Source: Dehalococcoidia bacterium
Lineage (GTDB): Bacteria; Chloroflexota; Dehalococcoidia; SZUA-161
Direction: 5' to 3'
NCBI GenBank assembly: GCA_014859215.1
Contig: JACUUS010000001.1
Span: 1 to 59,720, forward strand
DNA length: 59,720 nt
Positions 13,883 through 27,046 of this stretch are shown one piece after another. The position numbers and the translations under genes were made by a program. The notes below the pieces were generated by a model that ran no database searches, was not told the DNA's origin, and saw only the letters and a program-made list of their open reading frames with translations. The stretch's first letter is position 1. Each line of letters starts with the position of its first letter.

Positions 13883-15910
13883 TCACTCCGCTGCCTCGCC
13901 GGCTTCCTGCTTTCTCATCCCCGGGTTGCGAACGGGTTCGCCGGGCCGCGCGCGTGAAGGCAATCTGAAAATGTGCGCTGGATATGTGCGCGGATTGAGC
14001 TCGATATAGTTCCAGCTCCCCTTCCAGGTATAGTGGGATTCATTCAGGATATCATGCACCTGGTACGGTTCATTTTCTGGCAGCCCCAATTCGGCAAGGG
14101 GCAGTTCTACCCACCCGGACTGAGTGTGACAAGTGTCCAGGTTCACGACGACCAGTACTACATTTGAAAGGTCTGCCGTACTCTTGCTATAGGCCAGGAC
14201 CTGGTCATTATCAATGCGGTGAAATCGAAGGCTCCAGTCACTTTGCAGGGCCGCATTCTGCCGCCGGGCCAAATTGACCTGCGTGATGAAGTCCTTCAGG
14301 CTGTCCGGCCTTTCTATTTCCCAGTGCTTGATCTCGTACTTCTCGGAATCCAGGTATTCCTCACTTCCAGCCTGCCTGGGCTGGTTGACCTGGAGTTCGT
14401 ATGCGGGTCCATAAATTCCATAATTGGCCCCCAGGGTGGCTGCCAGGACCAGGCGTATCATGAATGCGGGCCGGCCGCCGGTCTGTAGATAGTGTATCAG
14501 AATATCAGGCGTGTTTGTCCACAGGCTGGGCCGGAAAAACTCGCGCACTTCAGTCCTGGTGAGTTCAGTGAAATAGTCGATGAATTCGGACTTGGAGACA
14601 CGCCACGCGAAGTAGGTATAGGATTGGGTGAATCCCAGCTTCGCCAGCCTGTACATGATCTTGGGTCGGGTGAAGGCTTCTGAGAGAAAAATGACCTCCG
14701 GATAGTCTTCTTTGACACCGGAAATAAGCCATTCCCAGAAACCGAACGGCTTTGTATGAGGGTTGTCCACCCTGAAAATGCGGACCCCCTGCTCGATCCA
14801 GAACATGACCACGCTCTTTAGCTCTTCCCATAGGGCTTCCCAGTTGGGGGTGTCGAAATTGAGCGGGTAAATATCCTCGTACTTCTTGGGAGGGTTCTCG
14901 GCGTATTGAATGGTGCCATCCGGACGCCATGAGAACCACTCCGGGTGCTCTTTGACGTATGGATGGTCCGGTGAGCAGTTGAATGCCAGGTCCAGGGCCA
15001 CTTCGATGTCGTAATCAGCAGCCCTGGACATGAAGTTGCGGAAATCCTCCAGGGTGCCAAGTTCCGGATTCACCGCCTTGTGGCCGCCTTTTTTTGAACC
15101 AATGGCCCAGGGGGTGCCGGGATCTCCGTCCGCCGCAAAGGGTACGTTGTTCTTCCCTTTCCGGCGAGTACCGCCGATCGGATGTATGGGCGGGAAGTAA
15201 ACAACGTCGAAACCCATCGCAGATACGTAGGGGAGACGTCTTTCGCAGTCGGCGAACGTTCCATGTTTGCCCGGTACGAGCGCGCACGATCGCGGGAACA
15301 TTTCGTACCAGCTTCCGAATCGGGCCCTTTCCCGGTCGACGCGCACCTCCAGCTCTCTCGGGTAGACTACAGCACGGTCCCTGTTAATATACCTCGTCAT
15401 CAAGAGGGACAGGTCTTCGCTGAGGGCGATTTCCACTTTGGAGGCTTCCGAAACCGCGCCTGACCTGAGAGAGCCCGCCCATTCCTGAAGGCCGGGTGAG
15501 TCCAGGGGAGAAGCGCGCCCTGCCGCGTCTTCGATCAGGTCCGCCCCGATCCGAAGTTCGATTGAAAGGTCCTGCCCGGCGTCGAGCCTCTTTTTCAGAT
15601 CCTTTCTCCAGGTCTGGAACGCGTCTATCATACCCATCAGCGTGAAGCGGTAGGGAGCGCACTCATTGACGAAGAAGGATGCCCGCCATCGATCATTGAC
15701 CAGGAACGTCATAGGGACTTCGACCCACACTGGATCGGTTGATTTTCGATACAGCAAAATAGCGAAGAGAGAGTCGTGCCCATCTGCGAATACATCCGCT
15801 TCCACCACCACCTTCTCGCCGACGACACGCTTGATGGGAAAACGACCGCCGTCTATCTCGGGATACACCCTGTCTATAACGACTCTCGTAGTGTACTTAT
15901 CGAGCTTCAT
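13883..15910 (-). CDS. glgE: alpha-1,4-glucan:maltose-1-phosphate maltosyltransferase (GlgE)
   Basis: 675 aa. It has the GlgE N-domain (IDRVYPEIDGGRFPIKRVVGEKVVVEADVFADGHD) followed by GH13_3 blocks (GFDVVYFPPIHPIG, IFRVDNPHTKP). Confidence 0.9.
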   Translation of the reverse strand: MKLDKYTTRVVIDRVYPEIDGGRFPIKRVVGEKVVVEADVFADGHDSLFAILLYRKSTDPVWVEVPMTFLVNDRWRASFFVNECAPYRFTLMGMIDAFQTWRKDLKKRLDAGQDLSIELRIGADLIEDAAGRASPLDSPGLQEWAGSLRSGAVSEASKVEIALSEDLSLLMTRYINRDRAVVYPRELEVRVDRERARFGSWYEMFPRSCALVPGKHGTFADCERRLPYVSAMGFDVVYFPPIHPIGGTRRKGKNNVPFAADGDPGTPWAIGSKKGGHKAVNPELGTLEDFRNFMSRAADYDIEVALDLAFNCSPDHPYVKEHPEWFSWRPDGTIQYAENPPKKYEDIYPLNFDTPNWEALWEELKSVVMFWIEQGVRIFRVDNPHTKPFGFWEWLISGVKEDYPEVIFLSEAFTRPKIMYRLAKLGFTQSYTYFAWRVSKSEFIDYFTELTRTEVREFFRPSLWTNTPDILIHYLQTGGRPAFMIRLVLAATLGANYGIYGPAYELQVNQPRQAGSEEYLDSEKYEIKHWEIERPDSLKDFITQVNLARRQNAALQSDWSLRFHRIDNDQVLAYSKSTADLSNVVLVVVNLDTCHTQSGWVELPLAELGLPENEPYQVHDILNESHYTWKGSWNYIELNPRTYPAHIFRLPSRARPGEPVRNPGMRKQEAGEAAE

Positions 15911-16115: not shown

Positions 16116-18248
16116 TCAATCGACGTGGATGCTTTCCCGGGGCGAGGCAGCAGCCGGCATGTACATATCGTTTGTGTACTCCTTCATCATGCGCCGTGTA
16201 CAGAAAAGGGGCGCCACAGTCCGGATGGCCTCCTTCACTATCTGCACCCAGCGGTGCGGGACTCCCGCCCGGTCGCGATCATAGAAACAGGGTACAATCT
16301 CTTCTTCAAGCAGGCGATACAGGGCCCGCGAATCTGCTTCATCTTCCAGCGCGCGGTCCTCAAGGTCGCCGCCTATAGCCCAGCCGTTCGTGTTCTTGTA
16401 GCCCTCGTGCCACCAACCGTCCCGTACGCTGAGATGCGGTACCCCGTTGATGGAGGCCTTCATGCCGCTTGTACCGCTTGCCTCCCAGAGCCGCCGGGGA
16501 GTATTGAGCCAGACATCCACTCCGGAGACAAGATACCTGGACATGTGCATATCGTAGTCTTCAATAAAGATAATACGACCGTGGAAGTCCCGGCTGCCGG
16601 CCAACTGGTAGACCTGGTGAAGCAGATGTTTTGCGGGGGTATCGGCCGGGTGTGACTTGCCGGCAAAGACTATCTGCACGGGGCGGGAGGGATCGGTGAT
16701 AATCCGTTTCAACCTCTGAATGTCACGGAATATGAGGCCTGGTCTCTTATACTCTACGAAGCGGCGAACAAATCCGAGGGTCAGGTAATCCGGATGGAAG
16801 AGCGCCCCCGTAGCGATGACCTGATCGGCTGTCATTTCGCCGTTCGCCCAACCTCTCTGGAAACGGTTGAATATGACCGCCATAAGCTTATGCTTGAGCA
16901 GATTCCGCACTTCCCACAGTTCCTCATCCGGCATTTCGTTCACGTGCGCCCAGATCTCCTCTTCGTCCTGTTTCTGAAGCCATTCCGGCCCGAGATATTT
17001 CTTGAAGAGCGTGGCCATCTCAGGGGCGACCCATGTACAGAGGTGTATTCCATTAGTGATATGCGAAATGGGTACGGATTCTTCGCTTGCTTCCGGCCAC
17101 AGGACGTGCCACATTCTCCGGGAAACCATGCCGTGCAGCCGGCTCACGCCATTGCGGCGGTTGGACATCTTGAGGGCCAGTATGGTCATGTTGAAGGTAG
17201 GATCAAGCTTGCCGTCTCTGCGCCCCAACTGAAGGAACTGGTCGCGGTCAATGCCAAGTTGTTGCCAGCTGGCGGCAAAGTACTTCTCAACCAGTTCGGC
17301 AGGGAAAATATCGTGACCGGCCGGGACCGGGGTGTGGGTTGTGAAGACTGTGTTAGCCTGTACGCTGCCAATCGCCTCGGCCATGGGGGTCCCGGTCTCA
17401 AGTTTCTCCCTGATACGTTCCAACATCATAAAACCGGGATGGCCCTCGTTGGCGTGCCAGACTTCCGGGTTAATACCGAGCGCCCGCAATACCTTGACTC
17501 CAGCTACCCCAAGCACGATCTCCTGCTGAAGGCGGGTTTCCTGGTCTGCCACGTAAAGGCGCGAGGATAAGAGGCGGTCCTGGAGGCTGTTTTCCTCTAC
17601 ATTTGTATCGAGCAGGTAAAGGTTGACCCGGCCGATGCGGACTCTCCACGCGCTGACGTACAATCTCTTGTCTCCCACCGGGACTTCGACCATGAGCTTA
17701 TTGCGTCCGGGAAGGAAAAGCTGCTCTATTGGCGTCTCGTCGAAGTTCAACTGCTCGTAGAGCTCCTTCTGCCAGCCATCGGGTGTGATTCGCTGGTGGA
17801 AATAGCCCTGTGGGTACATAAATCCGACCCCGACGAGGGGCAAACCCAGGTCGCTGGCTTCTTTACAGATGTCGCCTGCCAGGATTCCCAGTCCGCCGGC
17901 GTAAATGGGGAGCGAATTGTGAATTGCGAATTCCATGGAAAAATAGGCTATAGGTCCTCGCAGCAAGCCCGAGTTCGTTTTGTGAAACCAGGTGTCATCG
18001 CCCTTTGTATCGGCATCGAACGCGGTCAAGACAGAGTCATGGAGTCTGAGGAATACAGGGTCGGCGGCAGCCTGCCGAAGACGTTCCGGACTCATTTCCT
18101 GAAGCTGTTTTACCGGGTTATGCCCGCTGGACTTCCACAGGGGGTTATCGAGGGTCTGGAAAAGGTCCCGTGCTTCGGGATGCCAGCTCCACCAGAGGTT
18201 ATGCGCAAGCTCAAGCAACCGGCTTATTCGGTCCGGTATTGGAATCAT
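16116..18248 (-). CDS. glgP: alpha-glucan phosphorylase (GT35, GlgP/maltodextrin phosphorylase type)
   Basis: 710 aa. The N-terminus reads LAHNLWWSWHPEARDLF. It also contains IAYFSMEFAIHNSLPIYAGGLGILAGD and the pyridoxal-Lys region EASGTSGMKA. Confidence 0.9.
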   Translation of the reverse strand: MIPIPDRISRLLELAHNLWWSWHPEARDLFQTLDNPLWKSSGHNPVKQLQEMSPERLRQAAADPVFLRLHDSVLTAFDADTKGDDTWFHKTNSGLLRGPIAYFSMEFAIHNSLPIYAGGLGILAGDICKEASDLGLPLVGVGFMYPQGYFHQRITPDGWQKELYEQLNFDETPIEQLFLPGRNKLMVEVPVGDKRLYVSAWRVRIGRVNLYLLDTNVEENSLQDRLLSSRLYVADQETRLQQEIVLGVAGVKVLRALGINPEVWHANEGHPGFMMLERIREKLETGTPMAEAIGSVQANTVFTTHTPVPAGHDIFPAELVEKYFAASWQQLGIDRDQFLQLGRRDGKLDPTFNMTILALKMSNRRNGVSRLHGMVSRRMWHVLWPEASEESVPISHITNGIHLCTWVAPEMATLFKKYLGPEWLQKQDEEEIWAHVNEMPDEELWEVRNLLKHKLMAVIFNRFQRGWANGEMTADQVIATGALFHPDYLTLGFVRRFVEYKRPGLIFRDIQRLKRIITDPSRPVQIVFAGKSHPADTPAKHLLHQVYQLAGSRDFHGRIIFIEDYDMHMSRYLVSGVDVWLNTPRRLWEASGTSGMKASINGVPHLSVRDGWWHEGYKNTNGWAIGGDLEDRALEDEADSRALYRLLEEEIVPCFYDRDRAGVPHRWVQIVKEAIRTVAPLFCTRRMMKEYTNDMYMPAAASPRESIHVD

Positions 18249-18383: not shown

Positions 18384-19766
18384 CTATTCGTCTGACGGGC
18401 TGCCGATGGGCGTCTCCCCGAGCTTGGCATCATAGGACTCCAGAGCCCTGCCGGTGTCCGAGAGGATCTCTTCGGCATTGCCAAACTCCTTCTCCCAGGT
18501 GCGGCTCCTGGCAACCGTCTTGAATCGCTCATAGCCCTCCCTCGCCGTCTTCGCCAGAACAGCAAGGGGCATCCCGCCAAGGACAAGGTAGACATCGACG
18601 CGGTCAGAACTCCTGTCGATCTGAGAAAGCTGGACTGTGCTGCCCTTCAGGCGGGGAAAGGTCTCCTTGTTCCACCTGTTTATCTCGGAGCGCAAGGTTT
18701 GTTCATGCATGGAGGCGGCAACCTTTTCGGGAACATTGACGACCATGTGTGACAGGGTGATCTCTTGCCTGTCCACTGGCGCAAGCGGGCACAGGAGCGC
18801 GCTCTCGAGGATATTCCGGATACTGCCGAAGATTTCGAGGCTGCGCCCGATGGCCACGCAGGGCACAAAAGCATGTATGCCAAGAGACCTGCTCATCTTG
18901 GCAAGGTAGCCGGGTTCAGTGTGACCGCGTCCTGATACGGTCACCGTACCGGCCAGTGCTCCAAGAAGGCGAGAAACGAGTTCTTCCCTGGCAATCTCTT
19001 CGCCAGCTTCACCCACTCCGCGGATCTTCATCAAGCGATCGTGCTCAACGAGCACCACCATGTCGGCGACCGGGCCCCGTTCCAGGTCGATCAGCCTTGA
19101 CAGTGAGCAGACCGCATTGAACTGAGCGCCGTCCTGTTCAGTGGCCGCGGGCATGAGGGCGATTACGAGAGTCCTGGCGTGCGAATTATGGCATCGGGCT
19201 CGCTCAAGTATACAGGGGCTGGCCCCGCTGCCTGTTCCTCCGCCGAGAGCGGAAAGCAGAAAGACAGCCTGTTTGCGTACCGTTGACCGTATACCGGAGC
19301 GGAGCAGCCGATCATCCAGCCCAGGGTCGCCGCACGCCAGTTGCTGCCCGAGACCGAAGTACCCGACCTGTTTGCCCGCAGTACCGGGCAGCAGATGCAG
19401 CGAAAGAGGTGAAATAACATAATCCTTGCTCGCTCCCGTTTCCGGGATCAAGCCGGCAAGGTGCCTCGCTTCTCCCGAGGCATCTATCATCAGGAACCCG
19501 GAGTTCTTGAGGTCGCGTCGGGATGCCTGGAAGAAGTTCTGGACTAACCTGCAGCCCTGGTCGCCCACGCCCATGAAAATTCGCTCCCGGGCAAACTTCA
19601 GACGCTTTTCTTCATCCCCCAGAGCCTTGAGGAGAAGATCGAGCTCGGTCTCACAGTCTATCACAGGCAGACCGCAGACAGGGCAGGGCGCCGAATCGTC
19701 CTGGCACTGGTGACTGTTCGGGCAGAAAATTGTCTTCTTCTCGGTGTACTGTGTCGCCATCGTCAA
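18384..19766 (-). CDS. FtsZ/tubulin-superfamily GTPase-like protein with N-terminal 4-Cys zinc ribbon (paralogue B)
   Basis: - 460 aa, starting with a CPNSHQC...CPVCG zinc ribbon.
- T1-like loop: MGVGDQGCR.
- T3-like loop: GYFGLGQQ.
- Exact tubulin signature GGGTGSG (aa 175-181, nt 19224-19244).
- FtsZ-like VVLVEHDRL segment.
- FtsZ C-domain-like end: HMVVNV...VDVYLVLGG.
- The tracked start is TTG at 19766. An ATG at 19760 is an equally good start. Confidence 0.7.
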   Translation of the reverse strand: MTMATQYTEKKTIFCPNSHQCQDDSAPCPVCGLPVIDCETELDLLLKALGDEEKRLKFARERIFMGVGDQGCRLVQNFFQASRRDLKNSGFLMIDASGEARHLAGLIPETGASKDYVISPLSLHLLPGTAGKQVGYFGLGQQLACGDPGLDDRLLRSGIRSTVRKQAVFLLSALGGGTGSGASPCILERARCHNSHARTLVIALMPAATEQDGAQFNAVCSLSRLIDLERGPVADMVVLVEHDRLMKIRGVGEAGEEIAREELVSRLLGALAGTVTVSGRGHTEPGYLAKMSRSLGIHAFVPCVAIGRSLEIFGSIRNILESALLCPLAPVDRQEITLSHMVVNVPEKVAASMHEQTLRSEINRWNKETFPRLKGSTVQLSQIDRSSDRVDVYLVLGGMPLAVLAKTAREGYERFKTVARSRTWEKEFGNAEEILSDTGRALESYDAKLGETPIGSPSDE

Positions 19767-20734
19767 GAACCAACGTTTGAGTGCAAATAGGCCTCGAGAG
19801 TGCGGGCAGTTTCCTGGACGTGAGCTGTGATCGCGGGTTTATCATCGCTCGAAGGGCTATCTATCCCGGGATGGAGAGAGAGTCTCTGGATAAGAACGGC
19901 GGCCAGTCTCGACAGTTGAGGCAGGCATTCGTCAGCCTTGAGATTCTCCCCGAGTTCCAACCAGGCGCACAGAAGCCTGTACCGGAACGCGAAGAGGAAT
20001 ATGTACCTGATGTCAAACCATGAGGTCAAATGCGGACTCTCGGCTACGATCCCGGTAAATTCCCTCGGTTCCGGAGCATCATTCCCAAGCGTTTCCCCGA
20101 TAACCTGAAGCGTGGAAACAACTTTGCGCAAGACAGAGGAAGCATCACGCGCGAGAACGGCGTCATTGACCGCTTTCAACTGGTTGACGATGTCTACGGA
20201 TTGCAGCTCCGCGAGAGCCGTCGCCATTTCACCGGCCTGGCTGGTTGAGGCATCGATGCCGTCCCAGCCTTCATATGTGAGGTCACGAAAAATTCCAACG
20301 AGCAGGTCCACCACGAGCCAGGTGACGCACGCCGTCCTGTCCAGAAAGAGCCTGTACTGCGCTTTACGCTCCCGGAGCAGGTTCTGCTGGCGCAGGGTCT
20401 CTAGAGAGGCTTTGAGATCCCGACAGAATGCGACCGCGGCTTCGCCCTTAGCCAGCGACAGGCGGCTGGCGGCGCGTTCGCCCCTCGAGCCGGCCCATTC
20501 CAGCACCAGCGTGGTTGAAGAATCTCTGACTTTGGCGGACGTGATATCCGCCAATCTTATGGAAAATTCCAGGTGGGGTGACGAAAAAAAGTTGTTCTTC
20601 CTTTCGAAAAGGAGACTCTTGCTTGTCAACAAGAGCTTGCCCTTACCCACCTTATCGAGTTGCACATTCTTGAGCTCGGCCAGCGGGTGTTCTTCGGGCA
20701 GCGGCGGGGCCTGTATCTCGGCGACAGGACTCAT
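19763..20734 (-). CDS. hypothetical protein: N-terminal PH/GRAM-like domain plus C-terminal all-helical domain
   Basis: 323 aa. The GKGKLLLTSKSLLFERK...FSIRLADITSAKV pattern resembles PH/GRAM/bPH beta-sandwich domains. The start forms an ATGA overlap with the upstream gene. Confidence 0.5.
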   Translation of the reverse strand: MSPVAEIQAPPLPEEHPLAELKNVQLDKVGKGKLLLTSKSLLFERKNNFFSSPHLEFSIRLADITSAKVRDSSTTLVLEWAGSRGERAASRLSLAKGEAAVAFCRDLKASLETLRQQNLLRERKAQYRLFLDRTACVTWLVVDLLVGIFRDLTYEGWDGIDASTSQAGEMATALAELQSVDIVNQLKAVNDAVLARDASSVLRKVVSTLQVIGETLGNDAPEPREFTGIVAESPHLTSWFDIRYIFLFAFRYRLLCAWLELGENLKADECLPQLSRLAAVLIQRLSLHPGIDSPSSDDKPAITAHVQETARTLEAYLHSNVGS

Positions 20735-23097
20735 GCAGCAGCCTCGTTATGGCTCGCTTTGACCACCTGCCTGTGCCTGATGGCGCTCTGCCGGGCATCG
20801 AAGACAGCCTTATCCGGGTGAGCAGCGGCGTACATTCGCAGGTATTCCAGAGCATATTTCGAATTCATGGGGAGGTCCGAGCACATGATTTCCTGTGAAC
20901 GTGCGAACTTGTCATCGATGATGTACTCAATGTTGGGGTAGTTAATAAGGAAATCATTCATCTGGTGGTAGTTCTGGATCGCTCTGGCCTGGAGCTCGAT
21001 AGCTTCCAGCAACCTGTCCATGAAGATGAAGCGTCTGCTGATTGCATCATCCTCAAGCGTATTTGCAGCCGAGTTGAGCAGCTCTTGCGCTTCGGCCGCT
21101 GTGTGGCTGTTCTTGCCCCAGGAATACCCATTAGGGCATCTGCGGGTGTTGCCCTCCTCGAGAGCGCGGATGAGAGAGTTGAAATCTCGTACGGCACCGG
21201 TTGCGGCGTCCATCAATTTACGGCTTTGTTCGACGATAACTATAACGTGTGCCAGCATCCGAGAGCCCTGAACGGCACTGGCGATGGAATCGAGTTCCCC
21301 GGCTTTGGTGCGGCAGAGGTCTGCCGACTTCGCATCTCCGACGGATTCGAAAATAGGGGCGAGCCTGGTAAGGAGAATAGCCTTGAGTCTCTCCGACATG
21401 GAAGCGACCCGGCCCGCAAGTTCAACTATCGAGTTCTCGATTCGGCCATCTATAATCTGCAGGTCTTCGGATATGGTCCGTGCAGCTTCCTCGAATCTAC
21501 CCTGCTTTACAAATCCGTGGCCGATGTCGATGGTGGTGAGCGAAAACTCGGGATCGATCTCGTCCTGAATCGTGTTAGAGACTACGTCCCCTGCGGATAC
21601 GAGTTCTGTGGCCAGTTGCTTGAAAGCATTATTGAGCTTTTCCTGCTCAGCAAGAGCGGTGTCGAAGTCATCCACATGCAGGGCCAACTGGACCGGCGCG
21701 ATAACGCCGTTGATAGCCGGGATGCCGAGGGCACAGGCTTCGTCGACCGTGGCTTTGTACAGGCGTTTAGACTCCTCCAGGTACTTGATGAGCTTATCCT
21801 CGAGCTGCGCCTGCAGCAGGGAAAGCTGTTCGCGCATCGCGTGAAATTCACCGCAACTCATTTCGAGCCGGGGCAGGCTAAGGGCGCCTTCGCTTTCGAG
21901 GGTGAGCGCTACTTTTTCCTCGCACTGCGCAATCGAAGCCTTTTCATCGCCCAGGTCCCTGGTACGACAGACGCCGGCAAACTCATGAAGCCGCCTCCTG
22001 GTGCTGTCCAGGAGCTCGTAGAGCTCCAGAGAGAGGCCCGCCAGCACTCCCCTGAACCTCACTTTTGAATCGCGCCGTGACAGCCAGGTCTCCACTGTTG
22101 AAGCCAGGCCTGCGAATGCGAGCATTGCCCCCATCAGGATGCCGATGTTTGCCAGGTCGGAGAAAGCGGTCCTGTACCCCAGCGGTTTTTCCAGAAGCTG
22201 GAGGGGTACAAGGAATACGAGCGCCATTAGCAGTACAAGGAACACAGGGTTCAGAGCGCGCAGCAGAGAGTTGGTGTCTCCGAGCTTCCTCAGAGGGCTG
22301 AGAAGGGCTGGTGTGACCAGTACTGACGCGTACATGGAGAGGACGAGGACCACTCCCCCCCACCCCTCGATGAAGTAGGGTGAGAAATAGCTAAACCGGC
22401 TTATGTCGTGACTCAGCTGCCCATTGAATGCCGCTTTTAGTGAAGAAAGGTCCAGGTAGCTCAAAGCGGGCAACTGGGCATACTCCACCCGCAGGAAGAG
22501 GGGAAGCATTTCTCCTTCGGCAAGAGGGGGATATGGCATAACCAGGAAGGGCAGGTAAAAAACAATAAAAGCGAAAACGGCCCATCCACCGCTGACAGTT
22601 GATCCCCTGAGCCGGAAAAGGGTAATGGCTGCGAGTAATGCGAAAGAGACAACGAAATACGGAGTGAGCATCAGTACGCCGGCCGCTGCACCTACAGTAA
22701 CACCCAGTATGGCTCCTGTAAGCCCGGTCAGAGCGAAGGGAAGCATGAGCGCAATGGTACCGAGCGATATAAAAGCCCACAGCGCGCCATCGAGCTGGTA
22801 CGAGTATGCAGGCGATGCGAACAGGAGCATTAGTACGAGAGCGATCGCGGGCCACCGGTACGCCAGCAGCGCGCACAGGAGCGCGAGGAACACGCACATA
22901 GCGGGGGGATAAAAGGGCAGGAAGTAGTAGACTACGAGTGAGGTGATGAGGAAGATCAGAGATGTGGCGAGCTTGCCGCAGAACTCCCGGAAGGCTTTCT
23001 CACTGTTCCCTACGTCACATCCTTGCAGCAGCCCCTCACCGGTGTCTTCGGTAACTTGCAGCGAAGGCAAGGTATTCTCCATAAGATCCGTTACCAC
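20731..23097 (-). CDS. polytopic membrane protein (~8-9 predicted TM helices) with ~440-aa cytoplasmic helical/coiled-coil C-terminal domain
   Basis: 788 aa. Residues ~45-340 are almost continuous hydrophobic helices. The rest is amphipathic and helical, rich in E/K/L/A. The tracked start is GTG at 23097 with no clear SD, and an ATG lies at 23082, so the start is uncertain. Confidence 0.6.
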   Translation of the reverse strand: MVTDLMENTLPSLQVTEDTGEGLLQGCDVGNSEKAFREFCGKLATSLIFLITSLVVYYFLPFYPPAMCVFLALLCALLAYRWPAIALVLMLLFASPAYSYQLDGALWAFISLGTIALMLPFALTGLTGAILGVTVGAAAGVLMLTPYFVVSFALLAAITLFRLRGSTVSGGWAVFAFIVFYLPFLVMPYPPLAEGEMLPLFLRVEYAQLPALSYLDLSSLKAAFNGQLSHDISRFSYFSPYFIEGWGGVVLVLSMYASVLVTPALLSPLRKLGDTNSLLRALNPVFLVLLMALVFLVPLQLLEKPLGYRTAFSDLANIGILMGAMLAFAGLASTVETWLSRRDSKVRFRGVLAGLSLELYELLDSTRRRLHEFAGVCRTRDLGDEKASIAQCEEKVALTLESEGALSLPRLEMSCGEFHAMREQLSLLQAQLEDKLIKYLEESKRLYKATVDEACALGIPAINGVIAPVQLALHVDDFDTALAEQEKLNNAFKQLATELVSAGDVVSNTIQDEIDPEFSLTTIDIGHGFVKQGRFEEAARTISEDLQIIDGRIENSIVELAGRVASMSERLKAILLTRLAPIFESVGDAKSADLCRTKAGELDSIASAVQGSRMLAHVIVIVEQSRKLMDAATGAVRDFNSLIRALEEGNTRRCPNGYSWGKNSHTAAEAQELLNSAANTLEDDAISRRFIFMDRLLEAIELQARAIQNYHQMNDFLINYPNIEYIIDDKFARSQEIMCSDLPMNSKYALEYLRMYAAAHPDKAVFDARQSAIRHRQVVKASHNEAAA

Positions 23098-23111: not shown

Positions 23112-25838
23112 TTAGCCGCCGGCGATTTTCTCACCAGGCCCGGGTATGTCTGTAACCTCCTCCAGACCGTTGCCGTCGAAGGAAGCATCCATGCCGTGCT
23201 CGAGCAGGAACGAATGGGCAAGCCTCTTCTCTTCCTGGGTGGTGTGGCTGTAAATGTGCTTCATTTCGCTGTAGCATTCCAGGAATTCCGGCTCCGCCCG
23301 GGCGGCGATAATAAGGAATCTGACAGTCCAGGGATCGGAAGAATCGATTTCGCGTATGGCAATACTCCTGGAGGCATCCTCCTTCACATAACCGGAGAGG
23401 GTCGCCCTCACGTCAGCAGCCAGATCATGGTCCCATATACCGCGGGGCGAGACTATGGCAAACCAGATGTAATCGGTCTTGTATTGTGAAGTGAGGCCCA
23501 TCACGCCGGGAACCCGGAAGATGCCAAGCACGCTGGACAGGTATTCCTTAAGATGGTCCTTGTCTACGATTTCATTAAGTATGTTTTCGTTGGACAGCGA
23601 CGCTTCATCCTCCATAAGGATTCTCTGCATCAGCTTAAGCTGGACGTCCTCCGTCAACTCGGCGGTGCGATTGTAGAAACCCTTGTCCTTTACCATTGCA
23701 TTCATTTTCTCGTAATGCCGGTTTGCCAGCTCGGTGATCTCGGCGAGAAGCTTGCGGTAATCGGAGTTGACGTCGAATCGCCTCTCGATAGCCGTGTACT
23801 CGCTCATCTTGGCCTGTACCTGCTCAAGGCCCTCGGACTGCAGACGAATGTCTTCGTCTACCGATGTCAGGGCATGGTCCAGTTTCTTCCGCCGGTCATC
23901 CCAGAGTTTCTTCTTGCCGCCGGCCAGGAATCCGAGCTTGATATCACTCACCTCCCTGCTCGCGCGTGTCCTTTCAACCTGTTTACTCTTGCGGTTAAGC
24001 TCGAGATTGTCCAGCGCGGACGTCAGGCTGGCAGCCTCTTCTTCCAGTACCCTCTTGACCCTGCGGCAATTGACCAGCAGGGAATCCATGCTTTTCAGCT
24101 GGATATTGAGTGGAGTGAACATTGACGAGAGAAGTGAGAACAGGACCACAAGCTCGGGATTTATGATCCGCTCGACGCGTGTAAGGGCTGCCTGCTGATT
24201 CTCGGTCTTTTCGCTTTTTACCAGGTTCTTCTGAAGCTTGTCAGCCAGCTTCTTGGTCTCGAGGTAGCGGCGCAGACTCCGCAGGTAGTCCTTTATCATC
24301 GCAGCGAGTTCGCTGACATCATTGACCAACTGCACTTCCTTCGCGGTCAGTTGCTGAGCGCTGGGGAGGCTGTCTCGCAGGTTCTCAAGGATGTCGTCTA
24401 CCTCGCGCAGAAATTCGCCGTAGTTCTTTGATATGCGTGCCGCGAGTTCGATGAGCCTGGACGCCTGTTTCCGGATTAGAGACTCCACTGTTCCTTCGGG
24501 CGTATCCAGACCAATGGCCATGACGGGCCGGCCCAGCTCATTCACCTGGGCCTTGATAGGGTCGTCGACACCCTTGAGGTGCATTATGAATTCGGTCTCA
24601 ATGGAGCGGTCGGCATTGATGAGGTTCTCAACGGTTTCGTCGAAAGCATCCTCGTTGAATTTGCCGGCTTCGATAAGCTGCTGCCTGTAGATCTCCCGGA
24701 GCTCCTGGTAGCAGAGTTCGAGGATCTTCGCCACGCCGCCGACTTCTGTCGGATGTGTGCCAAGGTACACTTCCTTCTTCTCTCGCCTCAAGGCCCGGAC
24801 CTTGTCCAATCGGTGCAGGAATATCTTGGTCAGGTCGATGAACTCGGTGATAGGATACGTGATGCTTATCGTTGAAAGCACGTGCAGCCACCGACCATTC
24901 ATGTCGATATTGGAGCCGATATTGCTGAGTAGATCGGCGAGGTCGAAGTTCATGGAAGTCATCAAAATGTCGACAATGGCGTCATCGATCAGGCGTTTGG
25001 CGTCGATCAGGCTGGCAGTCTTGCTGTACGCAGGCCCGAGCGGCATGCACAGAAAAGCGCTGAACGGGTTCTCGTAGGTGTGCCCGAAGCGGGCCGTCAC
25101 CCTGGCGTTGCTCTGCTTGTTCACGGCCATGCCTGTTTCAAGGAGGGCGCTGAAGGCGGAGGTGCCTTTGGCCGGAGGATCATCGCCCGAGCAAGGCAGT
25201 ATGCACAGGCCGATAATAGGTACGCCGCTGCCCAGTTTGCGGCGAAGATGCCTGGCGAAATCGAGGACCATGCCGCTGCCGCTGCCGCCACCCAGGCCGA
25301 AGACGAGGAATACCACAGGCTGGATAGTGGACGTGAAAAGGTGCTCCTTGAAGGTGTCCATGTAGTTGTCCAGCAATCTCAGGTGGTGATAGTTCAGTCC
25401 ATAGATGGCCTTGGAGAGCGCCCGTCGCCGGCCCACTCCGCCTGCCAGCGGCGGTATATCCATGGAAGAAGCAAGCCACGGCTGATAGTCCGCGCCGACC
25501 TTCACGCCTTCGCGCTTCAGGTACTGCGGGAACTTGTTGATAAAATCGAACATGCTCTCCGGAGTCGGAAACTTGACGGACTTCGCCGTGAGAGAAATCT
25601 TATCCGAAGGTATGCCCCTTTCCCGGAGCTCCTCGAACAGGTTCCTGGCTGAGACCTCCAGGCTTTGAATATCATGGTCGGCGACATCGATAGCCAGGCA
25701 GGAAACCCTGACACCCTCTTTCTTGACCAGGGACAGCAGGGTGTTGCGGTTATTAATGAAGGCCTCCACAATATTCACGCCGGCTCCGCCCAGACCTACC
25801 AGCTGTATAGACGAGTTATATGTCCCGAAACGAGCCAT
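23112..25838 (-). CDS. FtsZ/tubulin-superfamily GTPase-like protein with ~600-aa coiled-coil C-terminal extension (paralogue A)
   Basis: - 908 aa.
- T1 loop IQLVGLGGAGVNIVEAF (nt 25779-25796), compared with FtsZ IKVIGVGGGGxNAV.
- T3-like loop AGGVGRRRA.
- T4 signature GLGGGSGSG (nt 25272-25292).
- T7-type NFDLAD, i.e. NxDxxD (nt 24933-24950).
- A strong SD, GGGAGG, lies 5 nt upstream of the ATG. Confidence 0.7.
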   Translation of the reverse strand: MARFGTYNSSIQLVGLGGAGVNIVEAFINNRNTLLSLVKKEGVRVSCLAIDVADHDIQSLEVSARNLFEELRERGIPSDKISLTAKSVKFPTPESMFDFINKFPQYLKREGVKVGADYQPWLASSMDIPPLAGGVGRRRALSKAIYGLNYHHLRLLDNYMDTFKEHLFTSTIQPVVFLVFGLGGGSGSGMVLDFARHLRRKLGSGVPIIGLCILPCSGDDPPAKGTSAFSALLETGMAVNKQSNARVTARFGHTYENPFSAFLCMPLGPAYSKTASLIDAKRLIDDAIVDILMTSMNFDLADLLSNIGSNIDMNGRWLHVLSTISITYPITEFIDLTKIFLHRLDKVRALRREKKEVYLGTHPTEVGGVAKILELCYQELREIYRQQLIEAGKFNEDAFDETVENLINADRSIETEFIMHLKGVDDPIKAQVNELGRPVMAIGLDTPEGTVESLIRKQASRLIELAARISKNYGEFLREVDDILENLRDSLPSAQQLTAKEVQLVNDVSELAAMIKDYLRSLRRYLETKKLADKLQKNLVKSEKTENQQAALTRVERIINPELVVLFSLLSSMFTPLNIQLKSMDSLLVNCRRVKRVLEEEAASLTSALDNLELNRKSKQVERTRASREVSDIKLGFLAGGKKKLWDDRRKKLDHALTSVDEDIRLQSEGLEQVQAKMSEYTAIERRFDVNSDYRKLLAEITELANRHYEKMNAMVKDKGFYNRTAELTEDVQLKLMQRILMEDEASLSNENILNEIVDKDHLKEYLSSVLGIFRVPGVMGLTSQYKTDYIWFAIVSPRGIWDHDLAADVRATLSGYVKEDASRSIAIREIDSSDPWTVRFLIIAARAEPEFLECYSEMKHIYSHTTQEEKRLAHSFLLEHGMDASFDGNGLEEVTDIPGPGEKIAGG

Positions 25839-25840
25839 GG

Positions 25841-26449
25841 TTACCTCCCACTGATCCTCTCAAGCTGCTGCTTGACCTGTTCCAGATCCCGACCGAGTTG
25901 CTTGTCTATCTTGGTCAGTCTTACGGATAAGACATCCAGCTTGCCCGCTTCCTCATCAATCTGCTGGCGTACAAGGCTGCCGCCTGATCTTGACCTGAGG
26001 AAGAGGAGGAAGAAAATGACCGCAAACACAGCGGCGATGGCTATGGCTACAATATATGGCATGAACGATACCTGGGACGAGGCTACCGGAAATCCCGAGG
26101 CAGACGTCGGAAGCGTTCCCAGCAGAGCCGTCGCGCTCTCAACCAGTCCTTTCGCGCTCAGGTCCTTGGCGACCTTGATCACGCTGTCGGCCAGGCTTGC
26201 GTACCGGGGTTCGACGACAGAAGTCTGGAGAAGGTTCTGCTTGCTCGTCAGGAGTTGTTCGTAGGCTACTATGGCCTGGTCCTTAACATCGACACTGTAT
26301 TCGTCCAGCAGGGTGTCCTGAGGACCGAGAAGAAGTCTCACCATGCCTACAGGCCTGATGAAATGCAGGTAATCACCATTTGATATCTTCTCAGATGTAT
26401 AGTCCGAGGGCACAGTCCCCGTCAGGGCAAACCTGGCTGTCCCTTCCAC
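25841..26449 (-). CDS. single-pass membrane protein with cytoplasmic coiled-coil tail; probably the 3' part of a larger frame interrupted by TAG
   Basis: 202 aa from a GTG with no convincing SD. It has one TM helix (MPYIVAIAIAAVFAVIFFLLFL) followed by RSRS and a heptad-like tail. It lies in the same frame as ORF 26480-26794, separated only by TAG plus 10 sense codons. Confidence 0.5.
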   Translation of the reverse strand: MEGTARFALTGTVPSDYTSEKISNGDYLHFIRPVGMVRLLLGPQDTLLDEYSVDVKDQAIVAYEQLLTSKQNLLQTSVVEPRYASLADSVIKVAKDLSAKGLVESATALLGTLPTSASGFPVASSQVSFMPYIVAIAIAAVFAVIFFLLFLRSRSGGSLVRQQIDEEAGKLDVLSVRLTKIDKQLGRDLEQVKQQLERISGR

Positions 26450-26479
26450 CCCGTTGAACCTGATTACCGGCTGCCCTGG

Positions 26480-26794
26480 CTACCAGGTATCGGTATTGAC
26501 ACCTGCATAATCGTTTTCAAGCCGCCAGTACACATCGCCTATTTTTCGCAGGGGAGTGCTGAGGCCCAGAAGTGTATCTTCCAGTCCCACCCCAATGTCG
26601 ACTTCCAAAGTGACTGTGTATGTTGCGCCTGCCATCAGCGGCCCTTTGGTTACATCGCTGCCATCGATATTCCTGACGATGCATGATGATATGAGGGCTG
26701 GTGAGGGGCTCTGGGCTGACACTGAGGCAGGGAATGCAAGAGCGAGGACTGGGACTACGAGCATAACTAGTGCCAGAAGTCTCACCTTGTTCAT
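26480..26794 (-). CDS. small secreted protein (Sec signal peptide); probably the 5' part of the frame continued in 25841-26449
   Basis: The start is set to the ATG at 26794 (MNKVRLLALVMLVVPVLALAFPASVSA/QSP), with AAGGAG 8 nt upstream. The tracked GTG at 26803 is less likely. The mature part is beta-rich. Confidence 0.55.
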   Translation of the reverse strand: MNKVRLLALVMLVVPVLALAFPASVSAQSPSPALISSCIVRNIDGSDVTKGPLMAGATYTVTLEVDIGVGLEDTLLGLSTPLRKIGDVYWRLENDYAGVNTDTW

Positions 26795-27017
26795 AACATA
26801 CACTCCTTTAATTCACCGGGTTCATTGTCTGTCGATACGCCGCTCAGGGTAAGGGGCCCGAGGCCTTGCCACCTCATCACATCAGCCCATCCCTCCCCTC
26901 ATACCTTGAGCCGGAGTTTGCCCGGGTGAATCTGGAGACTTCTGAAAGCTGATAAAGAACGGCAAACCACCCACTGCCCGGCGGACTGACGAAAAGGCCC
27001 CGCCCGGCATTGTGCCA

Positions 27018-27046
27018 AGAATAGCATCGTGCTTTGGTGGTGTCAA
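27018..27046 (-). promoter_or_regulatory. candidate sigma70-type promoter for the FtsZ-like operon
   Basis: The minus strand reads TTGACA (27046-27041), a 17-nt spacer, then TATTCT (27023-27018). It would give a leader of about 215 nt before the ATG at 26794. Confidence 0.35.

Follow-up and report, generated by a model that had tools for sequence, protein, structure and literature searches.

Can a tubulin-like protein that appears to have lost the catalytic residue of its T7 loop still serve as one half of a nucleotide-dependent pair? The question is raised by a 59,720-nucleotide stretch of DNA from a Dehalococcoidia bacterium of the Chloroflexota (assembly GCA_014859215.1, contig JACUUS010000001.1, positions 1 to 59,720; hereafter the window), in which two tubulin-like genes, A and B, lie on the same strand in a five-gene module. 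A preliminary description made from the sequence alone had called them paralogues, with the T7 acidic residues kept in A and seemingly replaced in B, and had proposed an alpha/beta-tubulin-like division of labour. On the evidence of alignments, we find that B lacks the second, catalytic T7 acid and has a conserved aromatic residue (Tyr285) instead. A is strictly co-inherited with B, and their synteny is conserved. Comparison of B sequences across lineages further suggests that B has in part turned into a pseudo-enzyme, by complementary losses in different lineages, whereas A retains its full set of motifs. The two genes are:

18384 to 19760, minus strand: gene B, a 458-aa zinc-ribbon protein of the tubulin/FtsZ superfamily (open reading frame list, homologue starts, PF00091, fold match).
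23112 to 25838, minus strand: gene A, a 908-aa protein of FtsZl1/Tubulin_2 type (PF13809, alignment, AF2, Foldseek).

B had been described as a 460-aa open reading frame (ORF). An uninterrupted minus-strand ORF does span 18384 to 19766, and what changes is its start. The listed TTG at 19766 adds two residues and is unlikely to be used. Relatives of B, all of which come from metagenome-assembled genomes (MAGs), start M-V/A-T-Q, and the database gene call also uses the ATG at 19760. This ATG follows the stop codon of the upstream gene, X323, by 2 nt (TGA-CG-ATG). Because of the homologue starts and the position of this ATG directly after the X323 stop, B is most likely 458 aa long. Pfam Tubulin (PF00091) matches B with 42.7 bits (cut-off 33, 1e-10) over residues 159-248 only. 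Tubulin_2 (PF13809) reaches 18.1 bits, under its cut-off of 27, the FtsZ equivalog TIGR00065 reaches 22.8 bits, far under its cut-off of 295, and the Pfam scan of B returned no FtsZ_C (PF12327), CetZ_C (PF21011) or Tubulin_C. A PDB sequence search gave weak, near-equal matches to FtsZ, CetZ, TubZ, BtubB and Asgard tubulins (E ~1e-7). B has the superfamily fold and the G-box and falls outside FtsZ proper, CetZ and FtsZl1. It is a real but very divergent tubulin/FtsZ-type protein, and constitutes a distinct family of the superfamily with an N-terminal CHCC zinc ribbon.

The best AlphaFold2 (AF2) model of B, built from 22 homologues, showed a complete two-domain fold plus C-terminal helices and no stalk (predicted local distance difference test, pLDDT, 79; predicted template modelling score, pTM, 0.79; the other four models had pLDDT ~58-60). 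Foldseek matched the full-length model to gamma-, Odin-, alpha- and beta-tubulin, CetZ, FtsZ and TubZ (E ~1e-16, TM 0.6-0.7) in alignments covering 400-470 columns (450-470 against tubulins). The T1 loop, the T4 loop, the VVLVEHDRL segment and the C-domain-like end named in the preliminary description were all found at the expected structural places, VVLVEHDRL as strand S6 and the end as the C-domain strands ITLSHMVVNV and RVDVYLVLG. The glycines of GGGTGSG and GVGDQG are invariant across the 22 homologues, and further nucleotide loops (a T3-like loop, the T5 Glu and the T6 Asn) are conserved. The positions of these loops and of the T7 region, the latter placed as set out below, are:

19551 to 19577, minus strand: T1 loop FMGVGDQGC, with G64, G66 and G69 invariant (family alignment).
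19221 to 19250, minus strand: T4 signature ALGGGTGSGA, with G-box GGGTGSG (Pfam and family alignment).
18882 to 18923, minus strand: end of the T7 loop and helix H8, HTEPGYLAKMSRSL (alignments and helix starts in the model).
18915-18917, minus strand: E282, at the first Asp position of T7 (register alignments).
18906-18908, minus strand: Y285, at the catalytic second-acid position (register alignments).
18897-18899, minus strand: K288, one H8 turn past Y285 (register alignments).

The N-x-D-x-x-D of FtsZ (N-L-D-F-N-D in the FtsZ of the same genome) aligns with H280-T-E282-P-G-Y285 of B, and five routes led to this register. A comparison of the B profile with CetZ2 (4b45) ran through H7, T7 and H8 and placed the Asp of the B profile on the first T7 Asp and its Tyr on the acid three residues further on (VDTSEV). 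When 57 family members were aligned by MAFFT L-INS-i with the FtsZ (INLDFNDV) and CetZ (KVIDASDI) of the same genome, GHTEPGYL aligned gap-free, and a separate MAFFT E-INS-i alignment of 85 sequences gave the same columns. The nearest zinc-ribbon clade (hhalign E = 2e-71) has L-E-P-A-D-L or I-E-F-S-D-L opposite T-E-P-G-Y-L of B, and the spacing from T7 to an invariant VPC motif is identical in the two. Finally, H8 of the AF2 models begins one residue past D299 in A and one residue past E282 in B, so that D302 of A and Y285 of B are both the third residue of the helix. Single-sequence hhalign alignments of the B family with the genome FtsZ or CetZ ended before H7 and did not reach T7.

In this register the reported absence of NxDxxD from B was borne out: position 285 is Tyr in 34, Phe in 5 and His in 2 of 41 close relatives. 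The Lys that had been placed at the catalytic Asp was misassigned by three residues and corresponds to K288, which is itself conserved (Lys in 35 and Arg in 6 of the 41). The alignments thus left no acid at the second, catalytic position, and the supposed replacement of the T7 acids does not extend to the first position, which is Glu in B of the window and Asp, Glu or Ala in 39, 1 and 1 of the relatives, respectively. Conservation across the end of T7 and H8 (mean top-residue frequency 0.84 versus 0.71 for B overall) accords more with an interface in use than with one in decay. Loss of the catalytic residue, together with faster evolution of B than of A (47-56% versus 75-80% identity over the same genome pairs), could in principle mark B as a functionless duplicate in decay. 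We find this scarcely credible, as it is contradicted by the 55 invariant columns of the 22-sequence alignment, by the restriction of the replacement residue to Tyr, Phe or His in all 41 relatives, and by a B ORF that is intact in all copies seen across three phyla bar one. That one is a second copy in a single genome (G420:C149:1956-3305, 42% identity), which carries an in-frame TAG.

Gene A has the T7 motif attributed to it in the preliminary description:

24918-24953, minus strand: T7/H8 of A, MNFDLADLLSNI (family alignment).

Its T7 reads MNFDLADLL, and among 25 A homologues (37-78% identity) T1, T4 and D299 are invariant and position 302 is Asp or Glu in at least 90%. Tubulin_2 (PF13809) scores 41.3 bits on A, over the cut-off of 27. 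The AF2 model (pLDDT 84.6) comprised a head (residues 1-327) that Foldseek matched to CetZ1, FtsZ and tubulins, helices from 330 to 716 that form a stalk of roughly 390 residues, and a C-terminal alpha/beta part (723-874). The description of A and B as paralogues was an overstatement. Compared by hhalign, the two families match with only 74% probability (E = 3e-5) and A is a stalked FtsZl1-type protein; by this measure they are not close paralogues. At a turn of the stalk lies the sole strongly hydrophobic stretch of A, which is conserved in the family (residues 563-581; 24096-24152, minus strand; NPELVVLFSLLSSMF). By analogy with dynamin-like proteins, this stretch might serve as a paddle that inserts into the membrane.

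The distribution of the two genes was next compared across genomes. Of 50 genomes of the order, 20 hold B and the same 20 hold A, with none holding only one, and the pair lies nearly always on one contig, ~3.4 kb apart. B is patchy within the order (10 of 24 genera) and was absent from 400 other sampled genomes of the phylum. The A family reaches the archaeal Nitrososphaeria (53-62% identity) and Bathyarchaeia (~37-52%). Species genomes scanned with A yielded 80 loci in three phyla, and a search of these with the B-family profile found a B-like gene beside A in 72; the 8 misses comprised 5 contig ends and 3 genuine cases. The pair is therefore co-encoded and co-inherited, and in A and B of the window the catalytic acid lies in one partner only, as in a heterodimeric pair.

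Several individual loci depart from the common arrangement. In a Bathyarchaeia locus (L033), the A homologues P0141 and P0142 have neither B nor other module genes nearby and end in a CxxC...CxxC ribbon-like extension, by sequence as if the ribbon carried by B elsewhere were fused to A. One Nitrososphaeria locus (L053) has U, A, TM788 and X323 and no B within 4.3 kb, and L070 holds an additional A gene standing alone, in a MAG whose other A lies in a full module (L066). A Chloroflexota-labelled Candidatus Limnocylindrales MAG (L090) carries a Bathyarchaeia-type module whose B is nearest to that of a Bathyarchaeota locus (L107), reflecting either horizontal transfer or a binning error.

An exhaustive profile search for the B family gave 263 representative clusters. 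A tree of the family, with its root on relatives that have T4 and DxxD but no ribbon, was resolved into a basal zinc-ribbon clade (mostly with T4 and the second acid kept), Bathyarchaeia, Nitrososphaeria and Chloroflexota clades. The Chloroflexota clade holds 31 rows (support 97) and includes the window clade of 11 rows (support 100). Chloroflexota B proteins have an intact T4 in 22 of 23 cases and an acid at position 285 in 1 of 23. In Bathyarchaeia-type B proteins, T4 is intact in 0 of 36 and the acid is present in 36 of 36, T1 is degenerate and the ribbon is absent. Nitrososphaeria B proteins have an intact T4 in 3 of 15 and the acid in 6 of 15. A keeps T1, T4 and DxxD throughout. That the nucleotide-free B of Bathyarchaeia retains the acid finds its simplest explanation if the acid acts in trans on the nucleotide of A, since A is the sole nucleotide-binding tubulin-fold protein of the module. 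Such trans action suggests that the T7 face of B meets the nucleotide face of A throughout the family, as a non-catalytic contact in the lineage of the window.

The Bathyarchaeia B proteins include long forms of 585-653 aa. These were considered as fusions with X323, which was ruled out, as the extension is a Pro/Glu-rich disordered region. Ribbon-less relatives of B with T4 and DxxD come from 65 metagenome loci (L114-L178), many from hypersaline samples. There a further tubulin-like gene (~390-450 aa) precedes them by 1.4-4.5 kb, and some loci have a third. They were also considered as the 'A1' partners of archaeal FtsZl1, for which they are doubtful candidates, an A-type gene being present in only 1 of the 65 loci. 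These loci look like a separate multi-tubulin gene cluster.

The motif states of the B clades also bear on whether B forms homopolymers of its own. Static filaments of GTP-bound B, with hardly any hydrolysis or none, would then work next to, and not within, the assemblies of A in a single machine. The fold of B is complete, its nucleotide loops are intact and loss of the catalytic acid would yield stable filaments. We nevertheless consider this reading unlikely, because B proteins of sister lineages that lack T1 and T4 could not form nucleotide-bridged homopolymers yet stay linked to A, and because in the order B never occurs without A.

We favour a model in which B of the window would be a GTP-binding but non-catalytic subunit, attached to the end of A assemblies or assembling jointly with A through a putative contact, a proposition that we regard as evenly balanced. 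B would bind GTP and be unable to trigger hydrolysis in a subunit whose nucleotide pocket its T7 face covers. It would dock longitudinally on the nucleotide-bearing face of the A head, as a beta-tubulin-like cap or co-assembling subunit, and GTP on B could be hydrolysed when the intact T7 of A docks there. The zinc ribbon might tether the B end of the assembly to another module component, and the module as a whole may act as a membrane-anchored cytomotive or remodelling machine apart from cell division. The obligate A/B heteropolymer suggested in the preliminary description fares less well. Because A has its own T7 and sometimes occurs without B, strict A/B alternation in one polymer is less likely than an accessory role for B, in which it binds ends or co-assembles.

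In another reading, B would be a GTP-dependent regulator or adaptor, acting as a nucleotide-state switch and binding A or the module proteins TM788, X323 or U off the longitudinal interface, for example through the ribbon on the A stalk or C-terminal part. The ribbon and the remaining features of B are placed as follows:

19662 to 19730, minus strand: N-terminal CHCC zinc ribbon, IFCPNSHQCQDDSAPCPVCGLPV (invariant alignment columns, short beta elements in the model).
18561 to 18875, minus strand: C-terminal (activation) domain, S7 to S10 (DSSP of the model, Foldseek).
18414 to 18551, minus strand: helices of residues 404-449 at the C-terminus, which pack against the body as those of tubulin, CetZ and TubZ do (model, aligned lengths).

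The predicted ligands, C13-x3-H17 and C26-x2-C29, are family-invariant. Cys19 is peculiar to the window B, so the ribbon is CHCC and not the 4-Cys ribbon first described. A ribbon is present in Chloroflexota and Nitrososphaeria B. A regulator would accommodate this extra domain, the distant relationship of A and B and the ribbon-like ends of the two L033 A proteins without a neighbouring B, and the strict co-occurrence of A and B fits it equally well. It is, in our view, rather unlikely. The T7-H8 face is among the most conserved parts of B, Bathyarchaeia B proteins lack the ribbon entirely, and their unbroken retention of the T7 acid is hard to explain unless that face meets a nucleotide pocket.

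Several observations count against an end-binding or co-assembling B that contacts the nucleotide face of A. Direct hhalign to the more distant ribbon-less clade moves the T7 register by one residue, onto G284, a position that is also non-acidic in 37 of 41 relatives. The T7 loop of the AF2 model (residues 274-280) is of low confidence, and one of the five models reached pLDDT 79. The first T7 acid (Glu/Asp282) is kept, so that some residual activity of B may persist. The clade pattern of decay amounts to a few evolutionary events, not many independent ones. A, with its own intact T7, would in principle need no B for self-assembly or GTP hydrolysis, and the three loci described above (L033, L070 and L053) have A and no B nearby.

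Taken more broadly, the contrast between lineages would mean that in Chloroflexota and TACK archaea the stalked FtsZl1-type tubulins are obligately paired with an unreported tubulin-fold subunit, a pseudo-enzyme that is GTP-binding with a dead T7 in Chloroflexota and nucleotide-free with an active T7 in Bathyarchaeia. Prokaryotes would then have evolved asymmetric pairs of alpha/beta type independently, within a membrane-anchored machine. We offer this generalization tentatively, as a possibility that falls somewhat short of an even chance.

Jackhmmer searches with the window genes across related loci gave the module order U, A, TM788, X323 and B, and in the window these genes are separated by gaps or overlaps of at most 30 nt. 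The other members of the module and a promoter-like site are:

19763 to 20734, minus strand: X323, a 323-aa soluble module protein with a homologue in most related loci and no Pfam match (ORF list).
20731 to 23097, minus strand: TM788, a polytopic membrane protein with ~10 hydrophobic segments in residues 38-332 and a helical cytoplasmic part, kept in almost all related loci.
25841 to 26803, minus strand: U, the first module gene, with a signal peptide, a transmembrane helix and a coiled coil (ORFs and related loci).
27018 to 27046, minus strand: promoter-like site upstream of the module, TTGACA, 17-nt spacer and TATTCT, with TG (consensus match only).

U of the window is divided by an in-frame TAG (26480-26482) into ORFs of 107 and 202 aa. 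In more than 60 related loci U is a single ORF of ~310-330 aa that both halves match, and the split could be a sequencing error, a pseudogene or read-through. X is inverted in Nitrososphaeria modules, and B of Bathyarchaeia modules is convergent and directly after A. Two ORFs just downstream of B, of 710 aa (16116-18248, minus strand) and 675 aa (13883-15910, minus strand), resemble by eye an alpha-glucan phosphorylase and a GlgE-type maltosyltransferase and carry these names as putative ones. Neither is kept beside the module in relatives. An Rfam scan of the window returned no match.

The genome of the window also holds a canonical FtsZ gene beside rsmH (G000:C111, L030:424-1509:-) and a true CetZ gene (CetZ_C 135.5 bits; G000:C262, L031:849-1982:+), giving, with A and B, four tubulin-superfamily genes in a 2.5-Mb genome. 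It is with these that we pair the proposal of a module separate from cell division. The module could instead be a conflict system, anti-phage or abortive, whose tubulin-like proteins undergo threshold-dependent assembly. FtsZl1-type tubulins, sometimes two per operon, do occur in GTPase-centred conflict systems (Kaur et al. 2020, PMC7159879), and the patchiness of the module at genus level (10 of 24 genera of the order) is in keeping with such a role. The Pfam scan of the module, however, found no vWA, GAP1-type GTPase, P-loop GTPase, OmpA, HSP70 or effector domain, and PADLOC run on five module proteins gave zero matches. The conservation of A, at 75-80% identity across genera and 53-62% to archaeal copies, is unusually conservative for a defence gene, and the module is widespread in Bathyarchaeia and Nitrososphaeria. 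A conflict role is therefore very unlikely, and a membrane-anchored assembly of A with an end-binding or co-assembling B remains our preferred reading.

How, then, does the pair compare with known systems? FtsZl1 has been known since 2010, and to our knowledge neither its function nor the logic of its partners has been established. In the present data, a large FtsZl1 subgroup of high conservation is accompanied by another protein of tubulin fold, which has lost, depending on lineage, the catalytic acid or the nucleotide site, and the pair sits in a five-gene membrane module common to Dehalococcoidia and two archaeal classes. This offers a model, open to testing, for the asymmetric pairing of tubulins outside the tubulin/BtubAB/AtubAB lineage and a handle on the role of FtsZl1 systems. 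The open full texts searched describe no zinc-ribbon tubulin-fold partner of FtsZl1 and no complementary decay pattern. Unnamed 'non-canonical FtsZ-like' sequences have been noted in the literature on Bathyarchaeia and Nitrososphaeria.

A belongs to FtsZl1 by its Pfam score and by its architecture, which in FtsZl1 consists of a head, a long helical or coiled-coil region and a C-terminal domain, encoded in a predicted membrane-associated operon (Makarova & Koonin 2010). B differs in falling under the PF13809 cut-off and in having no coiled coil. Published FtsZl1 operons contain families A1 and A2 and a P-loop GTPase in archaea, or vWA and OmpA in bacteria, with no second tubulin-fold partner reported, whereas the window module has no vWA, OmpA or P-loop GTPase. 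The FtsZl1-type systems of Firmicutes (Kaur et al. 2020) share with the module two tubulin-superfamily genes per operon. For the FtsZl1-vWA-GTPase systems of Firmicutes and Actinobacteria, a conflict role with threshold-dependent assembly was proposed (PMC7159879). Both tubulins of the Firmicute systems have C-terminal coiled coils and lie beside vWA and GAP1 GTPase genes, whereas here the stalk is on A only.

CetZ (3zid, 4b45, 4b46) and TubZ rank with the closest matches of B in both sequence and fold and have in common with it C-terminal helices after the second domain. They keep the T7 acids. B does not have CetZ_C and carries a zinc ribbon in addition. BtubA/B and Asgard AtubA/B are co-encoded prokaryotic pairs, and BtubB and AtubB2 are among the best PDB sequence matches of B. 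These proteins are close to eukaryotic tubulin, which B is not (E ~1e-7 over ~100-135 residues), and heterodimers have been shown for them, whereas the A/B pair is known from genes and monomer models.

The closest parallel in the distribution of active-site residues is alpha/beta-tubulin. There, as in A/B, one partner has the T7 acid (E254 in alpha) and the other replaces the second acid only (K254 in beta), keeping the GTP site and the first Asp. Retention of the first T7 Asp with replacement of the second acid alone is documented for beta-tubulin (PMC13394414). A further likeness is that the partners are encoded together. The alpha/beta-like asymmetry first proposed for the window accordingly stands in the acid found in A only, in the kept nucleotide motifs of B and in its beta-tubulin pattern, and fails in the identity of the residue, which is Tyr and not Lys. 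The two systems differ in other respects: A and B are very distant relatives, A has a ~390-residue stalk and belongs to FtsZl1, and B has a zinc ribbon. The heterodimer and microtubules belong to tubulin, whereas A/B is a pair of genes and monomer models. Moreover, the asymmetry is inverted in sister lineages, where the GTP site of B is lost and its acid retained. The comparison also bears on the repeated origin of an alpha/beta-type division of labour from GTPase polymers.

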